Below are positions 5,396 to 63,532 of a stretch of DNA of 64,000 nucleotides, piece after piece. The position numbers were made by a program, and so were the translations under genes. This stretch comes from Bacillota bacterium (lineage in GTDB: Bacteria > Bacillota > Clostridia > Acetivibrionales > JANLFN01), in the NCBI GenBank assembly GCA_030705825.1, contig JAUZPR010000001.1, positions 17,772-81,771 on the forward strand, written 5' to 3'. The notes under the pieces are model-generated. The model ran no database searches, was not told the DNA's origin, and was given only the letters and a program-made list of their open reading frames with translations. The first letter of the stretch is position 1, and each line of letters starts with the position of its first letter.

Positions 5396-6529
5396 ATGAA
5401 GATAAGCACGAGATTGGTCCATGGTCATAAGGGGGTTGACAAGGAAACCGGAGCCGTAAGTTTTCCTATATATCAGAGTGCCACATTCAGGCATCCCGGA
5501 CTTAACCAGACTACCGGCTATGATTATTCCAGACTCCAAAATCCGACCAGAGAAGAACTTGAAAATACCATTGCAAGCCTTGAAAACGGGACTACAGGAT
5601 TTGCATTTTCCAGTGGAATGGCAGCCATATCCACAGCTTTGTCTCTTTTTGTACCGGGAGACCATATAATAGTGTCCGACGATTTATATGGAGGTACCTA
5701 TAGATTATTTGAGGAAATGTATAAAAAATACGGTATTGAATTTTCTTATTTGGATACAAGCAATATAGATAATGTTAAAACTGCTGTTAAAAAGAATACA
5801 AAAGCACTTTTTATAGAAACCCCTTCAAATCCTATAATGAAGGTTACAGATATAGCTGCGGCGGCTGAGTTGGCTAGAAGTTCGGGAATACTTACAATTG
5901 TGGACAATACATTTTTGACCCCTTATTATCAAAGACCCATTGAACTGGGAGCAGATATAGTACTGCACAGCGGTACCAAATACCTTGGGGGCCATAATGA
6001 TACCCTGGCCGGGTTAATAGTAGTAAAAAATGAAGAGCTTGCCGCCAGGATAAAGTTGATACAAAAAACAGAGGGGGCTATGCTTGCTCCGTTTGATAGC
6101 TGGCTTATACTGCGCGGTATAAAAACTCTTTCAGTACGGATGGACCGTCAGCAGAAAAATGCCGCAGAGGTTGCAAATTGGCTTAGAAGTAATAATAATG
6201 TGGAAAGGGTCTACTATATCGGTCTTGAAGATCATGAAGGCTATGAAATTTCAAAAAGGCAAGCATCAGGTTTTGGCGCTATGATATCATTTTCTGTGAA
6301 GGATGCTTCATTGGTAGAAAAAGTGCTGGAACGCATCAGGTTGGTTTTATTTGCCGAGAGCCTAGGAGGGGTGGAAAGTCTTATAACCTATCCTATGGTA
6401 CAGACGCATTCTGCCATACCTGCTGAAATGAGAGAAAGGCTTGGAGTTGATGAGAAGCTCCTAAGACTTTCAGTGGGTATAGAAGCAGCTGAAGATATTA
6501 TAGCTGATCTTGAGCAGGCTTTGGAATGA
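5396..6529 (+). CDS. Cys/Met-metabolism PLP-dependent enzyme (cystathionine beta-lyase / gamma-synthase family)
   Basis: YSRLQNPTR, FSSGMAAI, and the HSGTKYLGGH PLP-lysine motif. I placed the start at ATG 5396 (SD AAGGAAG) rather than the track TTG 5366. Confidence 0.85.
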   Translation: MKISTRLVHGHKGVDKETGAVSFPIYQSATFRHPGLNQTTGYDYSRLQNPTREELENTIASLENGTTGFAFSSGMAAISTALSLFVPGDHIIVSDDLYGGTYRLFEEMYKKYGIEFSYLDTSNIDNVKTAVKKNTKALFIETPSNPIMKVTDIAAAAELARSSGILTIVDNTFLTPYYQRPIELGADIVLHSGTKYLGGHNDTLAGLIVVKNEELAARIKLIQKTEGAMLAPFDSWLILRGIKTLSVRMDRQQKNAAEVANWLRSNNNVERVYYIGLEDHEGYEISKRQASGFGAMISFSVKDASLVEKVLERIRLVLFAESLGGVESLITYPMVQTHSAIPAEMRERLGVDEKLLRLSVGIEAAEDIIADLEQALE

Positions 6530-6571: not shown

Positions 6572-7705
6572 ATGAAATTCGGGACCAAACTTATTCATAA
6601 CGGAAATGAAATCGATAAGACCACCGGGGCTTTAAGTATACCGGTGTATCAGGTATCTACCTATCATCAGGAGGATATTGACAAGGGACAGGAATTTGAT
6701 TATTCCAGATCCGGCAATCCTACAAGAAAAGCTCTTGAAGATACCATAGCAAAGCTGGAAGGAGGAGACAGGGGCTTCGCATTTTCATCGGGCATGGCTG
6801 CAACCTCCTCGGTTCTGTCAACTTTTTCTTCGGGAGATCACATAATAGTATGTGAAGACGTATATGGCGGCACCTATAGGATAACTACAAACTTTTTCAA
6901 CAGGTTTAAACTTGATATAACTTTTGTTGATGCTTCAGATATAAATGCGATTAAAGGAAGTATAAGAAACAATACTAAAGCACTATTTCTGGAAACTCCA
7001 TCCAATCCTTTAATGAAAATTATAGATTTGAAAAGTGCAGTTGAAATTGCTAAACAGCATGGAATACTAGTAATTGTTGATAATACTTTCATGTCGCCTT
7101 ATCTTCAAAGACCGTTGGAGTTGGGAGCTGATATAGTAGTTCATAGTGCAACCAAATTCATAGGAGGCCACAGCGATGTAATAGGCGGCCTTGCTGCAGT
7201 AAAAGGTGCTGAACTGGCTAAAAGAGTCTATTTTGTTCAGAATGGCTTTGGTGCTGTACTTGGACCTCAGGATTCCTGGCTGTTACTCAGGGGACTCAAA
7301 ACCTTGAAGGTAAGGATGGACTACCAGCAAAATAACGCAAACAGGCTGGCACAATGGCTTAAGACAAATAAGCATGTTAAAAAGGTTTATTATCCGGGGC
7401 TTGAGGAGCACCCTGGACGCAATATTCATATGTCCCAGGCTGACGGCGCCGGGGCGGTTTTATCCTTTGAGACTGTTGATACCGAAATGGCAAAACGTTT
7501 CATGAAGAATGTAAAAATGGCGGCAGTTGCAGTAAGCTTGGGAGGTGTCGAAACTATAGCCTCTTACCCGGTAAAGATGTCCCACGCTTCAATACCCAAG
7601 CCTGAAAGGGAAAGGCTGGGGATTTCGGACAGTCTTATACGTATTTCGGTTGGACTTGAAGAAATAGACGATTTGATTGAGGATTTTGAGAGAGCATTGA
7701 GCTGA
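6572..7705 (+). CDS. Second Cys/Met-metabolism PLP-dependent enzyme (cystathionine gamma-synthase/lyase family paralog)
   Basis: YSRSGNPTR, FSSGMAAT, and the HSATKFIGGH PLP-lysine motif. It is collinear with the preceding paralog. Confidence 0.85.
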   Translation: MKFGTKLIHNGNEIDKTTGALSIPVYQVSTYHQEDIDKGQEFDYSRSGNPTRKALEDTIAKLEGGDRGFAFSSGMAATSSVLSTFSSGDHIIVCEDVYGGTYRITTNFFNRFKLDITFVDASDINAIKGSIRNNTKALFLETPSNPLMKIIDLKSAVEIAKQHGILVIVDNTFMSPYLQRPLELGADIVVHSATKFIGGHSDVIGGLAAVKGAELAKRVYFVQNGFGAVLGPQDSWLLLRGLKTLKVRMDYQQNNANRLAQWLKTNKHVKKVYYPGLEEHPGRNIHMSQADGAGAVLSFETVDTEMAKRFMKNVKMAAVAVSLGGVETIASYPVKMSHASIPKPERERLGISDSLIRISVGLEEIDDLIEDFERALS

Positions 7706-20423: not shown

Positions 20424-20777
20424 GTTCATAGTTCATAGTTCAGAGTTCGGAGTTAGGAGTTCAGAGTTCGGAGTTGAGAGTTCAGAGTTCGGGGTTTAGA
20501 GTTTAGAGTTCGGAGTTTAGAGTTCAGAGTCCGGGGTTCAGAGTCCAGAGTTCGAAGCTTTGTAAGTTAAAGTTCATGGTTTGGAGTTTGTAGATTTTAG
20601 AATAACTAAAGTTCGGTTTTATTGGTCGTGATAGTGTTAGCGTTCAGAGTTAGGGGTTGCAATTAAATGTTATGAGTTTAGTATTAATAGCTAAAAGAGT
20701 AATTTAAAAGCTTAAACTCTCAACTCCAAACTTTCAACCCTCAACCCTCAACCATCAACCATCAACTCCGAACTTGA
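20424..20777 (+). repeat. Inverted heptamer-array element A
   Basis: 19 phase-perfect heptamers GTTNNRA (units start at 20424 and then every 7 nt through 20550). Degenerate copies continue to ~20660. Nine heptamers AACNNNN (mostly AACYCTC) at 20715-20777 are reverse-complement types. The SD AGGAGG lies at 20779. Confidence 0.9.
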
Positions 20778-20790
20778 CAGGAGGTTTACA

Positions 20791-22125
20791 ATGGGGACAT
20801 ATTTTCACTCGGTAACTTTAAATGAAGAAAAATGCAGGGGCTGTACCAACTGTATCAAACGGTGCCCTACTGAAGCTATCCGGGTAAGAAAGAGTAAAGC
20901 GCGTATTATTAATGAAAGATGTATAGACTGCGGTGAATGCATCAGAATATGTCCGTATCATGCAAAAAATGCCATAACAGATAAACTTGAAACGATAAAT
21001 TCGTATAAATATAAAGTAGTTATACCTGCCCCATCCTTATATGGGCAGTTTAAGACCATGTACACCAGAAATCATATTCTTACGGCATTGAAGCAGCTCG
21101 GGTTCGATGAGGTTTTTGAAGTCGCAAGAGCTGCCGAGATTGTAAGTGACGCCACAAGAAAGCTGATAGGAAAGGGAGAATTGAAAAAGCCGGTTATTTC
21201 TTCTGCTTGCCCGGCTGTTGTAAGATTGATACAGGTTAGATACCCAAATCTTATTGATAATATTCTAAAGCTGGAATCTCCAATGGAGGTTGCGGCCAAA
21301 ATAGTTAAAAACAAGGTATTGCATGAGAAAAAATTGGATCCTGCCGATATAGGCGTATTCTTTCTGACACCGTGTGCCGCCAAGGCAACAAGTGTAAAAG
21401 CTCCTTACGAAATGGAAAAATCAAATGTAGATGGTGTAATATCTATTAAGGATATTTATTTAAAGCTTTTGTATTTGCTGGAACATGGAACAAGTACTGA
21501 ACAACTTGAAACAGCAGGTTTTGAAGGAATAAGATGGGCTAACCCGGGTGGTGAAAGCCTTGCACTTAACACCGAAAAATTTCTGGCTGTTGACGGAATT
21601 CACAACGTAATTACAATTCTTGAAGAAATAGAAAATGATAAGCTGGAGGATGTTGAATTTATAGAGGCACTTGCCTGCAGCGGAGGTTGCCTTGGTGGAC
21701 CGCTTACCGTAGAAAATGCATACGTTGCAAAAACCAAATTGAAAAAGCATATAGACCAGGCAAAACAAAAGGGTATTGAGGTAGGTCAGACAGATAAGCT
21801 TGACGATGATTTGGTCTGGACAGGCAACATTGAATACAAGCCTGTTATGAAGCTTGACAGTGATTTTGCAAAAGCAATGAAAATGCTTGAGGATCTGGAA
21901 TCAATAAATAATATTCTGCCGGGGTTGGACTGTGGCGCATGCGGCGCACCAAGCTGCAGAGCTCTTGCAGAAGATATAGTCAGGGGTATCGCAAACGAAA
22001 CCGATTGTATTTTCAAGCTCAGGGAAAAAGTCAGAGACCTTGCTTCCCAGATGATAGAGCTGGAAGCAAAAATGCCTCCGGTTCTGGACAGGGAAAATGA
22101 CGACAAACAGGAACAGGAGAGTTGA
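20791..22125 (+). CDS. [FeFe]-hydrogenase-like protein, putative sensory type (2x[4Fe-4S] ferredoxin + Fe_hyd_lg_C + C-terminal Fe-S domain)
   Basis: CRGCTNCIKRCP and CIDCGECIRICP. H-cluster-type motifs SSACP, TPCAAK and ALACSGGCLGGP. The C-terminal LPGLDCGACGAPSCRALAEDI is an RnfB/pfam04060-like Fe-S motif. Confidence 0.75.
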   Translation: MGTYFHSVTLNEEKCRGCTNCIKRCPTEAIRVRKSKARIINERCIDCGECIRICPYHAKNAITDKLETINSYKYKVVIPAPSLYGQFKTMYTRNHILTALKQLGFDEVFEVARAAEIVSDATRKLIGKGELKKPVISSACPAVVRLIQVRYPNLIDNILKLESPMEVAAKIVKNKVLHEKKLDPADIGVFFLTPCAAKATSVKAPYEMEKSNVDGVISIKDIYLKLLYLLEHGTSTEQLETAGFEGIRWANPGGESLALNTEKFLAVDGIHNVITILEEIENDKLEDVEFIEALACSGGCLGGPLTVENAYVAKTKLKKHIDQAKQKGIEVGQTDKLDDDLVWTGNIEYKPVMKLDSDFAKAMKMLEDLESINNILPGLDCGACGAPSCRALAEDIVRGIANETDCIFKLREKVRDLASQMIELEAKMPPVLDRENDDKQEQES

Positions 22126-22126
22126 A

Positions 22127-22501
22127 ATGACAGTAAGAGAGTTGACTGAAAAATTAAACTTGAAACCGGTTACTGCCAAAGCCGGACTGGACAAGCAAGT
22201 AACAGGGCTATATATATGTGACCTCTTAAGTTGGGTAATGTCCCATGCCGGCAGCAGCAATGCATGGATTACTGTACTCACAAATCTTAATACAGTTGCC
22301 GTTGCACTGCTGACCGAGATTTCCTGCATAATCATTCCTGAAGGTATAAAAGCAGAAGAGACAATGGTCAAAAGAGCTGAAACTGAAGACATCGCAGTAC
22401 TTGAAACCGATGACGATGCATACAGCATATGCTGCAAAGCGTACAAAGCGGGAATAGGTAAGGCAGTTGATAGTAGAAAATTGTTGACAGTTGATAGATG
22501 A
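22127..22501 (+). CDS. DRTGG domain protein (second copy)
   Basis: ATG 22127 lies after SD AGGAGAG. YICDLLSWVM...WITVLTNLNTVAVALLTEISCIIIPEG is paralogous to 19645-19998. The last ~7 codons lie inside heptamer array B. Confidence 0.7.
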   Translation: MTVRELTEKLNLKPVTAKAGLDKQVTGLYICDLLSWVMSHAGSSNAWITVLTNLNTVAVALLTEISCIIIPEGIKAEETMVKRAETEDIAVLETDDDAYSICCKAYKAGIGKAVDSRKLLTVDR

Positions 22502-22645
22502 CAATTGACAGTTAAAAACAGCTGAGAATACGTTTTTTTAAAATATTAGTTACATTTATTATATAATTATACGGATGGAGTAGAACCCCATCCCTACTTT
22601 TAAGTTGGTTCAACTGTACACTGTCCTCTGTCAACTGTCAACTAA
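22480..22645 (+). repeat. Inverted heptamer-array element B
   Basis: The left array is ATTGTTG ACAGTTG ATAGATG ACAATTG ACAGTTA AAAACAG (22480-22521). The right array is CAACTGT ACACTGT CCTCTGT CAACTGT CAACTAA (22611-22645), the exact complement family. A central GGATGG/CCATCC hairpin lies at ~22573-22593. Confidence 0.85.
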
Positions 22646-22657
22646 TTAGAGGTGTTT

Positions 22658-23374
22658 ATGAAATTTGCAACTGATCTTCATATCCATTCAGCATTATCAC
22701 CATGTGCGGATAAGGATATGACTCCAAATAACATAGTTAATATGGCAAGATTAAAAGCCTTGGATATAATCGCGGTAACCGATCATAATTCGGCTGAAAA
22801 CATTGAAGCAGTGCTCTCATGCTGCGAAGGCTCGGATGTTTTGACTATTCCGGGAATGGAGATAGAAACAAGGGAGGAAGTACATTTGATTTGTCTTTTC
22901 CCGGACCTTGAGTCGGTTCTTGCAATGCAGAAGAAAGTTTATGATGCACTTCCCGGTTTTAAAAATAATGAAAAAATATTCGGTGAGCAAATCATATTTA
23001 ACAGCAGTGATGAAATTACAGGCAGTGTGGATCAGCTGTTGCTTACAGCAACAAGACTCAGTCTTGAGGAAACAGTATTAAATGTATTAGAATTGGGTGG
23101 GGCAGTGATACCTGCTCATATCGACCGGAATTCCTACAGCATATTATCCAATCTTGGCGGAATTCCTGAAAATCTTAATATTAGGTGGCTGGAAGTCTCC
23201 AGGGGAGGCGATAGGGAAAAATTACTGAAGGAAGTTGATTATTTGTCAAAATATTTCCTATTAACATCTTCCGATGCACACTCTCTGGAAAATATTCTGG
23301 AACGTGAAAATTTTATTGAACTTAGTAATAAGACTGTTGAGAGTCTTTTATGTACCTTACGTAATGGATATTGA
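22658..23374 (+). CDS. PHP-domain (polymerase/histidinol-phosphatase-like) metal-dependent phosphoesterase
   Basis: DLHIHSALSPC, AVTDHNS, PAHIDR and TSSDAHS metal-ligand motifs. ATG 22658 after GAGG. Confidence 0.75.
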   Translation: MKFATDLHIHSALSPCADKDMTPNNIVNMARLKALDIIAVTDHNSAENIEAVLSCCEGSDVLTIPGMEIETREEVHLICLFPDLESVLAMQKKVYDALPGFKNNEKIFGEQIIFNSSDEITGSVDQLLLTATRLSLEETVLNVLELGGAVIPAHIDRNSYSILSNLGGIPENLNIRWLEVSRGGDREKLLKEVDYLSKYFLLTSSDAHSLENILERENFIELSNKTVESLLCTLRNGY

Positions 23375-23492: not shown

Positions 23493-23521
23493 TTGAATGT
23501 TTTACGAAAATTTGTTATAAT
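23493..23521 (+). promoter_or_regulatory. Promoter of the hydrogenase operon
   Basis: TTGAAT (23493-23498), a 17-nt spacer, then TGT-TATAAT (extended -10, 23513-23521). Confidence 0.65.
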
Positions 23522-23529
23522 GTTAACGA
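23512..23529 (+). promoter_or_regulatory. Rex (redox-sensing repressor) operator 1
   Basis: TTGTTATAATGTTAACGA compared with the clostridial Rex consensus TTGTTAAnnnnTTAACAA. It overlaps the -10. Confidence 0.65.
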
Positions 23530-23532
23530 AAT

Positions 23533-23550
23533 TTGTTAAATACTTAACAC
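23533..23550 (+). promoter_or_regulatory. Rex operator 2
   Basis: TTGTTAAATACTTAACAC matches TTGTTAAnnnnTTAACAA at 13 of 14 specified positions. Confidence 0.7.
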
Positions 23551-57712: not shown

Positions 57713-57789
57713 GTACTTGAAATTGATAACATTTTTTTGTATAATTGTAATAATATCTTTTTAAAGAATACTAAATAATATAAATACAA

Positions 57790-58046
57790 TGATGGAGAAG
57801 AGTATATTCGGGGATTTTAAGAGAGCCGGCGGTTGGTGCAAGCCGGTAAAAAACCGGATTGAACGCAGCTCCTGAGTATCTCCTTGAGAAATTTGAATTA
57901 CTTTCAAAGAATAGAGGAAGACGGTTAACTCCACGTTACAGGGGTACAATGTGAATGCATTGGTTAAAGTTGACGCTTAAAGCGTAATTAGGGTGGTACC
58001 GCGATTTACTCCTTCGTCCCTTGTACAGGGACCGAGGAGTTTTTAT
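57790..58046 (+). promoter_or_regulatory. T-box leader (tRNA-sensing transcription attenuator)
   Basis: Stem I has a GA/K-turn (TGATGG / CCTGAGTA), the specifier-loop 5' side AAGAGTA, an AGAGAG bulge and the distal loop GGTTGGTGCAA. The T-box sequence AATTAGGGTGGTACCGCG lies at 57986-58003. The terminator is CTCCTTCGTCCC / GGGACCGAGGAG plus TTTTT (58009-58045). Confidence 0.85.
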
Positions 58047-61551: not shown

Positions 61552-62136
61552 ATGGCTGGAGAAAAATATATCGTCGCTACACTGGACAATCCGTCACAAA
61601 TTAATATTCGTAATATTTTAAATCCGGGTGGTTACATATTTCTGGGTAATTGCTTTGATCCTGTTTCTCTTCTAAGGTTAATAAGAAGTTATAATCCGGA
61701 TTTTGTTGTAGTAGATTTGGGTATGCAGCCCAGAGAACTCAGAAAGACAATAGAAACAATAGATGATGAAATGCTGTGTGCCTGCATAGCATTAGGTGAT
61801 TACAGGGATATTGAAAACGAAAATCTTGTTCAAAGATGCAAGGTACTTACATTATGCCAAAAGCCTCTAAGCAGGGAAATATTTTTGAACACGGTTGAAT
61901 TGGCTAATATGTATTACAAAAGACTGAGCGAAACCGAACAGAAACTAAAGGAAATGACAGAAAATTATGAAACAAGAAAATCGGTAGAGCGTGCAAAGTG
62001 GATTCTCATTAAAAGGGATGGTATCAGCGAAGCAGAGGCTTATGAACGTATGAGGAAAAAGAGTATGGATTCAAGGCTTACAATGAAAGCAATTGCAGAG
62101 GCAATTATATTTACCCATGAGATAGAAGGAAAGTAA
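61552..62136 (+). CDS. ANTAR-domain RNA-binding antiterminator with an N-terminal pseudo-receiver
   Basis: The C-terminal RKSVERAKWILIKRDGISEAEAYERMRKKSMDSRLTMKAIAEAII is the ANTAR pattern. The N-terminal domain has VVVDLG but lacks the acidic DD pair. Confidence 0.8.
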   Translation: MAGEKYIVATLDNPSQINIRNILNPGGYIFLGNCFDPVSLLRLIRSYNPDFVVVDLGMQPRELRKTIETIDDEMLCACIALGDYRDIENENLVQRCKVLTLCQKPLSREIFLNTVELANMYYKRLSETEQKLKEMTENYETRKSVERAKWILIKRDGISEAEAYERMRKKSMDSRLTMKAIAEAIIFTHEIEGK

Positions 62137-62384
62137 GTAAATAGTTAGGAGTTAAGAGTTAAGAGTTAAGAGTTAAGAGTTGGGAGTAGTGAGTAAGGAG
62201 TTAGGGGTTTATGGTTCAGAGTTCGGAGTAAAATAGTTGGGAGTTGGGAATTTAGGAGTGATATCCTGTAGGGAACGGCGCCCCGCCATTCCGCTATAGT
62301 TAAAGGAATATTTCTAACTCTGAACTCCTAACCCCGAACTATGAACCCTGTAACTCCAAACTACGAACCACAAACCCCGAACTA
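62137..62384 (+). repeat. Inverted heptamer-array element C
   Basis: The element starts at the base after the stop codon. It has 14 in-phase heptamers (GTAAATA GTTAGGA GTTAAGA x4 GTTGGGA ... GTTCAGA GTTCGGA GTAAAAT, 62137-62234) plus 2 more after a +1 slip (62236-62249). The central GC hairpin is GGAACGGCG-ccc-CGCCATTCC (62272-62292). Ten complementary heptamers (TAACTCT GAACTCC TAACCCC ... CGAACTA) lie at 62315-62384. Confidence 0.9.
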
Positions 62385-62412: not shown

Positions 62413-63532
62413 GTGATTGAACTTGATCAATTCAAGCTTGAAATTGACGAAATTAAAGGTGTTCTGGACGAAATGAGGGCTTCACTTTGACATCGCCAGG
62501 TTAAATGACGAAATAGCAGAACTGGAGATGAAATCAACAGAACCGGATTTTTGGAATGACATTGAAAATTCACAGAAAATACTTCAGAGGACCAAAAACC
62601 TTAAGACCAAGCTGGAACAGTTCCAGAAGATGGAGATGCAGTGCGACGATTTAAAAACCTTGAATGAGCTTGGTATTGAAGAAAATGATGATAGTGTAAT
62701 ACCTGAAATACAGGAAGGTTTGAAAAAGCTCAAAGAAAATTATGAAAAGCTTAAGCTTGAAACACTCCTGACAGGTCCATATGATAAAAACAATGCCATC
62801 ATAACAATGCATGCGGGTGCCGGTGGAACCGAAGCCCAGGATTGGGTACAGATGCTTCTGAGAATGTATACACGCTGGGGTGAAAGCAGGGGCTTTACCG
62901 TAAAAATTCTGGACTTCCTTGACGGTGAAGAGGCAGGAGTCAAGAGTGTGACAATTCACGTCATAGGCGACAATGCATACGGCTATCTAAGATCTGAGAA
63001 GGGAGTCCACAGGCTTGTCAGGATATCTCCTTTTGATGCATCAGGAAGAAGGCACACATCTTTTGCTTCGGTAGATGTTATGCCCGAATTGGATGATACG
63101 GTGGAAGTTGATATAGACCCTGACGACCTCCGTGTTGATACCTACCGTGCAAGTGGGGCTGGTGGACAGCACATTAACAAGACCGAATCCGCAATCAGAA
63201 TTACACATATTCCCACCGGCGTTGTCGTATCATGTCAGACTGAACGTTCACAGTTCCAAAACAGGGATACGGCTATGAAAATGTTGAAGGCCAAGCTTTT
63301 GGAATTAAAAGAGCGGGAACATAAAGAAAAGATAGAGGATTTAAAAGGAATACAAATGGAAATTGCATGGGGCAGCCAGATAAGATCTTATGTTTTTTGT
63401 CCCTATACACTTGTAAAAGACCACAGAAGCAACTATGAAGAAGGTAATGTCCAGTCTGTTATGGATGGGGAATTGGATGGCTTCATAAATTCCTACCTCT
63501 CAATGGGCGCTTTAAAGAAGGAAGAGCAATAA
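62413..63532 (+). CDS. prfB: Peptide chain release factor 2, programmed +1 frameshift (62413-62487 joined to 62489-63532)
   Basis: ORF0 is VIELDQFKLEIDEIKGVLDEMRASL-stop. The CTT TGA C shift site lies at 62485-62491 with an internal SD-like GAGGG at 62475-62479. The downstream frame gives DIARLNDEI...SPF...GGQHINKTESAIRITH (the GGQ motif). Confidence 0.9.
62475..62491 (+). promoter_or_regulatory. prfB autoregulatory +1 frameshift site
   Basis: GAGGG-cttca-CTT TGA C has the classical RF2 recoding architecture. Confidence 0.85.

Follow-up and report, generated by a model that had tools for sequence, protein, structure and literature searches.

The operon and its heptamer-repeat element

The 64,000-nt stretch of contig JAUZPR010000001.1 from a Bacillota bacterium analyzed here (hereafter the window, the numbering of which is used throughout) carries on the + strand genes that, by Pfam matches, encode a DRTGG protein, a HATPase, a HydS-like [FeFe]-hydrogenase homologue, a second DRTGG protein, a PHP-domain protein, a NuoE-like protein, another HATPase, a ferredoxin-like protein and a NuoF-like protein, in this order. 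Between the second DRTGG gene and the PHP gene lies an element, denoted B, that consists of two facing, degenerate arrays of 7-nt units, GTTGACA-type and then its complement, flanking a 92-nt AT-rich core (Table 1). B very probably belongs to the class of heptamer-repeat hairpins denoted here STRR-like, after the short tandemly repeated repetitive (STRR) sequences.

All the heptamers quoted for the two arrays in an earlier note on this DNA (the original prediction) are located where it placed them, and the arrays are reverse-complementary. The left array begins before position 22480, given there as its start: two additional degenerate units, GTTGATA and GTAGAAA (22466-22479), are followed by a 3-nt phase slip, which brings the array to about 7 units if both are counted, and the array-derived, non-homologous sequence starts at 22463. 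Unit 3 is off-pattern at the same position in both arms (GATGACA vs GAGGACA). The TTGACA contained in the unit was rejected as a source of true -35 boxes because there is no + strand -10 at proper spacing, and is a by-product of the unit sequence.

Strength of the repeat and fold signal

Both arrays are weak, with Tandem Repeats Finder scores under the usual 50: the left array is reported as GTTGACA x4.4 at 22483-22513 (75% matches, score 41), and the right array as TCAACTG x4.9 at 22610-22643 (77% matches, score 40). Together, they form an inverted repeat, 22478-22516 against 22609-22647, with 39-nt arms that are 79% complementary, are separated by 92 nt and pair at 31 of the 39 positions plus one U-G. 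The best inverted-repeat score in 22400-22720 is 16 (+1/-2 scoring); 300 shuffles averaged 8.1 and did not exceed 13. For 22460-22660, the predicted RNA fold reaches -52.4 kcal/mol (z = -4.1) when the + strand is folded; for the - strand, the energy is -55.1 kcal/mol (z = -6.1). Neither value was matched in any of 200 shuffles. A period scan of the 64 kb detected tandem arrays at period 7 and its multiples only, at B and at the two sister elements A and C described below; periods 5, 6 and 8-12 yielded no arrays anywhere in the window, and no period-7 arrays were found in 20 shuffled windows.

In the fold models, the arms of B are shown to pair into a predicted stem of about 35 bp on either strand. 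On the + strand, this stem comprises runs of 16, 4 and 6 bp, which would be compatible with an RNase III-type site (stem of about 20 bp or more). The GGATGG/CCATCC hairpin that the original prediction noticed in the core is indeed present (22570-22581 vs 22585-22596, 83% complementary) and appears in the minimum-energy and centroid folds of both strands. The arms pair at 32 of 39 positions on the + strand and at 31 of 39 on the - strand, and the fold energies are alike; strand asymmetry (G-U vs A-C), tried as a marker of the transcribed strand, was uninformative for B. Searches against Rfam 15 identified no family for B at the gathering score in the window and none at E <= 1 in 22400-22720. 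The sole Rfam family detected in the window is a T-box leader (RF00230, 125 bits) at 57780-58024 on the + strand.

Insertion into a tight DRTGG-PHP junction

The five-gene unit DRTGG-HATPase-HydS-like-DRTGG-PHP is kept in six relatives, in which the spacers between the second DRTGG gene and the PHP gene are 9, 21, 12, -17, 84 and -4 nt, that is, normally tight enough for translational coupling. No period-7 arrays were detected in the approximately 100 kb of orthologous DNA from these six relatives, so that the conservation of paired arrays at the orthologous junction envisaged in the original prediction did not materialize. Because the relatives keep short, array-free junctions, the 156-nt spacer in the window is a lineage-specific insertion or expansion, missing from all six, in a normally tight junction. 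A single NCBI record, from a metagenome-assembled genome (MAG) labelled 'Bacillota bacterium', matches the PHP product at 100% identity, and the next-best homologue, from Acetivibrionales-like organisms, is 62% identical. Apart from this record, exact-protein look-ups for the PHP and DRTGG products of the window gave no match, and a protein index that includes JGI data contains no close relative.

The footprint of this event can be traced on both sides of B. In the alignment with three orthologues, homology of the second DRTGG protein begins with M11, encoded at 22127, and not with the residue encoded at 22097, so that 22127 is the most likely start of the gene in place of the 22097 assumed earlier. 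The homology ends with ...GIGK (22460-22462), exactly at the terminus of the orthologue from one relative (L122). The following 12-residue tail, AVDSRKLLTVDR, is absent from the relatives and is encoded, together with the TGA stop at 22499-22501, by the repeat; this stop and the tail ending ...KLLTVDR had been read correctly from the outset. TGA occurs in the left array at 22485, 22492 and 22499, once per frame, and any reading frame entering the array is closed within 15 nt by TGA or TAG. The gain or loss of one 7-nt unit would thus change the DRTGG C-terminus, as originally proposed, but the change would be merely trivial.

At the other end, the last unit of the right array stops at 22645 and is followed by TTA and then by GAGG (22649-22652), a gap of 3 nt rather than the 2 nt given before; the PHP Shine-Dalgarno sequence is located just outside the B stem. 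When 22463-22646 is deleted in silico, the junction becomes AAG-TAG-AGGTGTTTATG, with the tight stop/Shine-Dalgarno/start layout of the closest relatives; of the two compared here (L121 and L122), L121 has TAA-GGTGTATAT-ATG (TAA-GGTG...ATG). From this correspondence, we infer that the TAG at 22647-22649 is the probable ancestral stop codon of the DRTGG gene. The nominal boundaries of B compare as GGTAAG|GCAG... and ...CTAAT|TAGAGG; a check of 22457-22462 against 22643-22649 for a target-site duplication revealed no clear direct repeat, with the boundaries of such degenerate arrays uncertain by a few nucleotides. The 156-nt spacer and the 12-residue tail are to be regarded as the footprint of a repeat insertion and not as conserved regulation of the hydrogenase-sensor operon, and the tail should not be annotated as functional.

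Sister elements and neighboring features

B is the weakest and most degenerate of three elements in the 64 kb, all of which reside in stop-to-start spacers, with the units GTTCAGA in A, GTTGACA in B and GTTAAGA in C. The original prediction that B shares the architecture of A and C with a different unit was borne out: A and C are predicted to fold in the same way as B, and the array order, AGTT-type followed by AACT-type, is the same in all three. The units are not free to vary: AGTT is common to those of A, B and C, and the arrays obey a gene-relative orientation (see below), so that sequence and polarity matter besides periodicity. In blastn-short comparisons with each other and with the window, the cores of the three elements yielded only chance matches of 10-14 nt, and a shared mobile core was rejected. 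The elements are not copies of one mobile sequence, because their cores are unrelated within the window. Accordingly, of the proposal that selection on structure or periodicity, rather than spread of a mobile sequence, produced these elements, the part on mobile spread stands; selection on structure is not demonstrated, because correlated variants in the two arms could equally come from inverted duplication.

The spacer between the HATPase gene and the HydS-like gene is 367 nt long in the window, where it is filled by A, and 129 nt (L121 4269-4397), 118 nt (L122 4178-4295) and 12 nt (L123 4314-4325) in relatives; these lengths mark A, too, as an expansion within a spacer of variable length. 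A super-period of 21 nt, or three units, fits better than the 7-nt period in A (20430-20554; 85% vs 78% for 7 nt) and in C (62143-62229), which points to growth by three units at a time; B is not long enough for such a period to be visible. The gene at 61552-62136, directly upstream of C, has a product of 194 residues, the C-terminal domain of which is an ANTAR domain (RNA-binding antiterminator type). From the end of C it is about 15 nt to the ribosome-binding site of prfB (release factor 2; 62413-62490 and 62528-63532), which has an apparent classical programmed +1 frameshift: the short first frame, VIELDQFKLEIDEIKGVLDEMRASL, ends at a stop and is followed by a 334-residue open reading frame (ORF) in the +1 frame with the PCRF and RF-1 domains.

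Downstream of the PHP gene, the 219-nt spacer before the NuoE-like gene contains two Rex-operator-like boxes, TTGTTATAATGTTAACGA (23512-23529) and TTGTTAAATACTTAACAC (23533-23550), which are 21 nt apart, the first overlapping a TATAAT; the stretch is listed by Tandem Repeats Finder as a repeat of 21 nt. The boxes were called with TTGTTAANNNNTTAACAA, which we take to be the Rex consensus. From their position, a separate redox-controlled promoter for the structural hydrogenase genes is probable, in which case B would stand ahead of the final gene of the sensor operon. About 2 kb upstream of the orthologous operon, one relative has a gene for a Y1-type (IS200/IS605-like) transposase (L123 1022-1477, L124 146-658); it is probably unrelated to the elements described here because that locus lacks heptamer arrays.

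Table 1. Coordinates of element B, its parts, the flanking genes and the sister elements in the window
Feature	Position	Strand	Description
Whole inserted element B	22463..22646		About 184 nt: left array, core and right array
Left array, AGTT-type units	22466..22517	+	GTTGATA GTAGAAA (att) GTTGACA GTTGATA GATGACA ATTGACA GTTAAAA
AT-rich core of B	22518..22609		Unlike the cores of A or C (blastn, chance matches only)
Small apical hairpin in the core of B	22570..22596	+	GGATGGAG / CCCCATCC, then CTACTTTT
Right array, AACT-type units	22610..22645	+	TCAACTG TACACTG TCCTCTG TCAACTG TCAACTA; complement of the left array
Second DRTGG-domain gene	22127..22501	+	Pfam DRTGG match; likely start M at 22127; last 13 codons including the stop array-derived
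Putative ancestral stop and PHP Shine-Dalgarno	22647..22657	+	TAG at 22647-22649 overlapping GAGGTG at 22649-22654
PHP-domain phosphoesterase gene	22658..23374	+	Pfam PHP match; last of the five-gene unit
Sister element A	20424..20776		GTTCAGA x18.6, 157-nt core, facing array of about 9 units; between the HATPase and HydS-like genes
Sister element C	62143..62384		AGTTAAG/AGTTAGG array facing its complement; between the ANTAR-domain gene and prfB

Heptamer arrays in other genomes and their polarity

A search for five consecutive GTTNNNA units in one genome per species identified at least 120 loci. Those listed come from Cyanobacteriota, Bacteroidota, Acidobacteriota, Planctomycetota, Chloroflexota, Poribacteria, candidate-phyla bacteria, a few Clostridia and one nanoarchaeon, and at many of the at least 120 loci a complementary array faces the first within 2-260 nt. 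Facing arrays with units other than GTTCAGA, the absence of which elsewhere had been named in the original prediction as the outcome that would speak against it, are thus present in many genomes. In a member of the Blastocatellia (L082, 4854-4950), the spacer reads TAA-ttc-(AGTTGAG/AGTTGAT)x4-core-(CAACTCT/CAACTAT)x6, with an ATG 13 nt further on, and the same stop-array-core-array-start layout is found in Parcubacteria (L120, 3535-3631) and Nanoarchaeota (L114, 3408-3517); in Nostoc (L010, 5028-5242), facing arrays fill the stop-to-start spacer. The B unit ACAGTTG itself recurs in about 10 loci among the matches listed, including those from Microcoleus, Daejeonella and Paludibacteraceae. In an uncultured member of the Bacteroidales (RUG14675, L109), two elements located 430 nt apart, at 6146-6252 and 6578-6683, share the core AGTTGGCTAYCGCYTTGTTG...GGAACTATCAACTGTCAACTGTAAACT; some lineages may spread such elements as whole units.

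Among the at least 120 loci, adjacent inverted arrays occur in the order AGTT-type then AACT-type in 31 cases and in the reverse order in 3 (binomial p = 8e-7). All three reverse-order pairs are separated by gaps of 318-486 nt, and at least one of these (L109) is the gap between two separate elements. The order survives reverse complementation and therefore represents a genuine topological constraint. Arrays without a partner, counted on the sense strand at the same set of loci, are also polarized: after stop codons, AGTT-type arrays prevail 49:18, whereas before start codons AACT-type arrays prevail 32:16 (Fisher p = 2.6e-5 for the two sets). By crude ORF calls, a gene was found on both sides of 16 of the 34 elements (31 from other genomes plus A, B and C); of these 16, 12 have co-directional neighbors, 4 have convergent ones and none has divergent ones. 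Fifteen elements have a + strand gene to their left, and in 8 of them the left array begins 6-39 nt inside that ORF, so that a start within the 3' end of a gene, as in B, is common for heptamer hairpins.

We consider this polarity, which extends across phyla, the most interesting by-product of the analysis, and we know of no published statement of an orientation rule for heptamer arrays. It points to an RNA-level or transcription-linked constraint and favors an explanation of this kind over pure DNA slippage. The non-random orientation also gives a concrete experimental handle on the heptamer-repeat class.

Origin and possible role of element B

Our preferred reading, held with moderate confidence, is that B is a lineage-specific palindromic heptamer-repeat element, transcribed as an intercistronic hairpin with a modest or neutral effect. 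The arrays would have arisen by slipped-strand expansion of the 7-nt unit plus an inverted copy, and their present purity of 75-79% suggests that they may now be decaying. The operon mRNA would be transcribed through B, which would fold out as a long imperfect hairpin; the base of this hairpin would rejoin the DRTGG stop and the PHP ribosome-binding site, so that the insertion could be tolerated. Any effect would be exerted at the RNA level, as a barrier to 3' exonucleases, through double-strand-specific (RNase III-type) processing or by maintained translational coupling. By analogy, these possible roles of B are those suggested, never proven, for the heptamer hairpins of cyanobacteria. That B has an RNA-level role that has actually been selected is possible, although we are inclined to doubt it; otherwise, B would be a tolerated, near-neutral insertion.

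Several observations weigh against this reading. B, more degenerate than A and C, is missing from all six relatives, and this fits neutral decay as well as it fits function. A search of the window with a three-unit AGTT pattern, one mismatch allowed, matches A and C many times and fails to match B. The two strands of B fold about equally, so that the + strand RNA is not marked as the active species. The loci of the survey were chosen by an AGTT-containing pattern, and the ORF calls behind the context and polarity figures are crude. Read-through of B, its folding in vivo and any processing are all steps that we infer. Furthermore, if the 10/12 promoter-like match in the core of B, TTAAAA-18-TATAAT on the + strand (22538-22567), is active, the PHP mRNA would start inside B, with the right arm only.

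This last possibility is part of an alternative, which we consider unlikely, that B splits the operon: the upstream transcript would end in the left arm or in the GGATGG hairpin, and the sigma-A-type promoter of the core would drive a PHP mRNA led by the AACT-type right arm alone. Apart from the promoter-like match, the small hairpin at 22570-22596 is followed by CTACTTTT, and lone AACT-type arrays elsewhere are enriched just before starts (this survey; PMC4679880). However, the stretch around B contains 4 promoter-like sites where 1.7 +/- 1.3 are expected, which is not significant; the terminator scan found no terminator-like sites in 22300-22800; and the long stem is followed by AAUUAGAGG and the small hairpin only by CUACUUUU, neither of which gives the GC-rich stem-loop with a directly adjoining U-tract of an intrinsic (Rho-independent) terminator. 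The predicted transcript start is located at or before the small hairpin, the cores of A and C contain no + strand promoter-like match better than 9/12, and promoter and terminator scans of all three elements gave nothing beyond chance. Very unlikely, in our view, is a non-autonomous mobile element of the MITE type (miniature inverted-repeat transposable elements), with the arrays as terminal inverted repeats and the transposase encoded elsewhere. Its size of about 184 nt, its terminal inverted arms, its being an insertion when compared with six relatives, the fixed inward direction of the surveyed arrays (31:3, at least 120 loci), as expected of transposon ends, and the core shared by the two Bacteroidales copies 430 nt apart would all suit such an element. 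Yet the conserved internal sequence of a MITE is lacking, the cores of A, B and C being unrelated and without a further match in the 64 kb; the arm units differ among the three, the arms of A are unequal (about 19 units on the left vs about 9 on the right), there is no clear target-site duplication at B, within the uncertainty of its boundaries, and transposon ends do not explain the gene-relative polarity of lone arrays.

We assign a similarly low probability to a DNA-level binding array, in which a regulator or nucleoid protein on the head-to-head heptamers, the unit of which holds TTGACA, would control the hydrogenase-sensor operon. The paired putative regulator sites of Geobacter metallireducens (PMC2700814), the change in recO and recF reporter output upon heptamer deletion in Nostoc (10.1101/2022.06.06.494920) and the 21-nt super-period of A and C, about two helical turns, speak for it, whereas the units differ from locus to locus with AGTT alone in common, the elements occupy stop-to-start spacers with no divergent cases among the crudely called ORFs, Rex-box-like sites further downstream belong to the structural hydrogenase genes themselves, and the relatives run the same operon without such sites. 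Still less credible is a phase-variable contingency locus in which slippage by one unit would toggle the DRTGG C-terminus or the coupling to PHP. The array does overlap the last 13 DRTGG codons, and heptanucleotide repeats are common and regarded as prone to slippage (Mrazek 2007, summarised in PMC4679880), but a unit purity of 75-77%, far from a near-perfect tract, is too low for frequent slippage, the closure of all three frames within 15 nt leaves few, non-conserved tail residues to change, and relatives lack the tail. The reading of B as a low-complexity palindrome due to chance, or as an artefact of assembly, is effectively refuted. The Tandem Repeats Finder scores of 40-41, under the usual threshold, and the origin of the window from a MAG could suggest it, against which stand the shuffled controls, with no period-7 array in 20 windows and neither the inverted-repeat score nor the fold energy matched in 300 and 200 shuffles, respectively, as well as the two stronger sister elements with the same layout, the recurrence of this layout in unrelated isolate genomes and flanks collinear with the conserved operon.

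Beyond the transcribed intercistronic hairpin that we prefer for B itself, the survey raises the broader proposition, bold and rather improbable, that AGTT-core heptamer arrays constitute a single class of cis-elements across prokaryotic phyla, oriented relative to genes, with a conserved strand-specific cause. In the mRNA sense, such a class may comprise (AGUUNNN)n after stops and (NNNAACU)n before starts, always facing in that order when paired. The cause may be a trans-acting single-strand binder with a 7-nt footprint (a cold-shock-domain protein, an S1-type protein or a ring oligomer of the HutP kind) or, alternatively, a conserved polar mutational mechanism. If the proposition is true, B would be a Bacillota instance of this class, and the 35-year-old question of STRR function would become testable in many culturable hosts.

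Comparison with known systems

For the possible action of B, repetitive extragenic palindromic (REP) sequences and bacterial interspersed mosaic elements (BIMEs) of enterobacteria and the RNase III sites of phage T7 offer analogies. These are extragenic palindromes in transcribed co-directional or convergent spacers that protect or process operon mRNA. REP elements share a GC-rich, conserved sequence and are accompanied by a cognate REP-associated tyrosine transposase (RAYT), and the T7 sites are conserved processing signals, whereas B lacks a conserved sequence.

Heptamer arrays have been described in several settings, and none of the cited studies establishes a mechanism. In G. metallireducens, paired tandem heptanucleotides form putative global regulator sites (class 3, consensus MTYCTGA; PMC2700814). 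As in B, tandem heptamers, five of them on one strand, have a counterpart set on the other strand, at many intergenic loci, but a single consensus is used genome-wide, and the sites are read as DNA-binding sites, without an experimental test in that study. In Nostoc, deletion of heptamer repeats upstream of recO and recF altered reporter output (10.1101/2022.06.06.494920). Direct repeats of the heptamer TAACTGA are found a few nucleotides upstream of starts in Beggiatoaceae, Cyanobacteria and Bacteroidetes, and regulation at the RNA level by S1, Csp or CsrA has been put forward for them (MacGregor 2015, PMC4679880). They resemble the right arm of B in being AACT-type heptamers in sense orientation just before starts, with a sporadic phylogenetic distribution, but are almost all direct (169 direct sets and one indirect repeat in the Guaymas 'Maribeggiatoa'; PMC4679880), with one dominant unit per genome and no facing arm or core described. 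Heptanucleotides are, according to Mrazek 2007 as summarised in the same paper, the commonest long simple-sequence repeats in many prokaryotes.

Closer in structure is the P6b stem-loop of the group I intron in tRNA-Leu(UAA) of Nostoc, which is built of degenerate heptanucleotide repeats, the copy number of which varies by genotype (PMC3488679, citing Costa et al. 2002). Here, too, two facing sets of degenerate heptamers pair into a long hairpin in the transcript, and genotypes differ in length by repeat copies, in agreement with growth through slippage that preserves the pairing; the difference is that P6b is located inside a structured intron, where the hairpin is part of a known RNA, and that the unit classes differ.

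The closest counterparts are the 7-bp STRR repeats able to form hairpins between hupS and hupL in four cyanobacteria, the function of which is unknown and for which transcript stability or translational coupling has been proposed (PMC2670836). Like B, they are tandem, hairpin-forming 7-nt units in the spacer of two co-transcribed hydrogenase-related genes, with many loci per genome and differing units. The host of B, in contrast, is a Clostridia-like Bacillota MAG rather than a filamentous cyanobacterium, its operon encodes an [FeFe]-hydrogenase sensor module rather than the [NiFe] HupSL, and B is short and degenerate, replaces a junction of near-zero length and invades the 3' end of the upstream gene. 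In Nostoc 7120, the repeat ttgtcag has 44 genomic copies (PMC2408588), and the ttgacag of B is one base apart from it. B has at least about four tandem 7-nt units and a facing complementary array able to form a hairpin, is intergenic, is one of several loci (three in 64 kb) with differing units and follows the AGTT-type then AACT-type order, an empirical rule from this survey; the Bacillota host and a unit not identical to the Nostoc ttgtcag (PMC2408588) set it apart from STRR sensu stricto. The heptamer-hairpin architecture has thus already been described in cyanobacteria (PMC2670836, PMC3488679), and B is a further case of a known kind of repeat, here in Bacillota. Hairpin-forming heptamers are known above all from filamentous cyanobacteria, and the same layout is seen again in Bacillota, Acidobacteriota, Bacteroidota, Planctomycetota, candidate-phyla bacteria and a nanoarchaeon.

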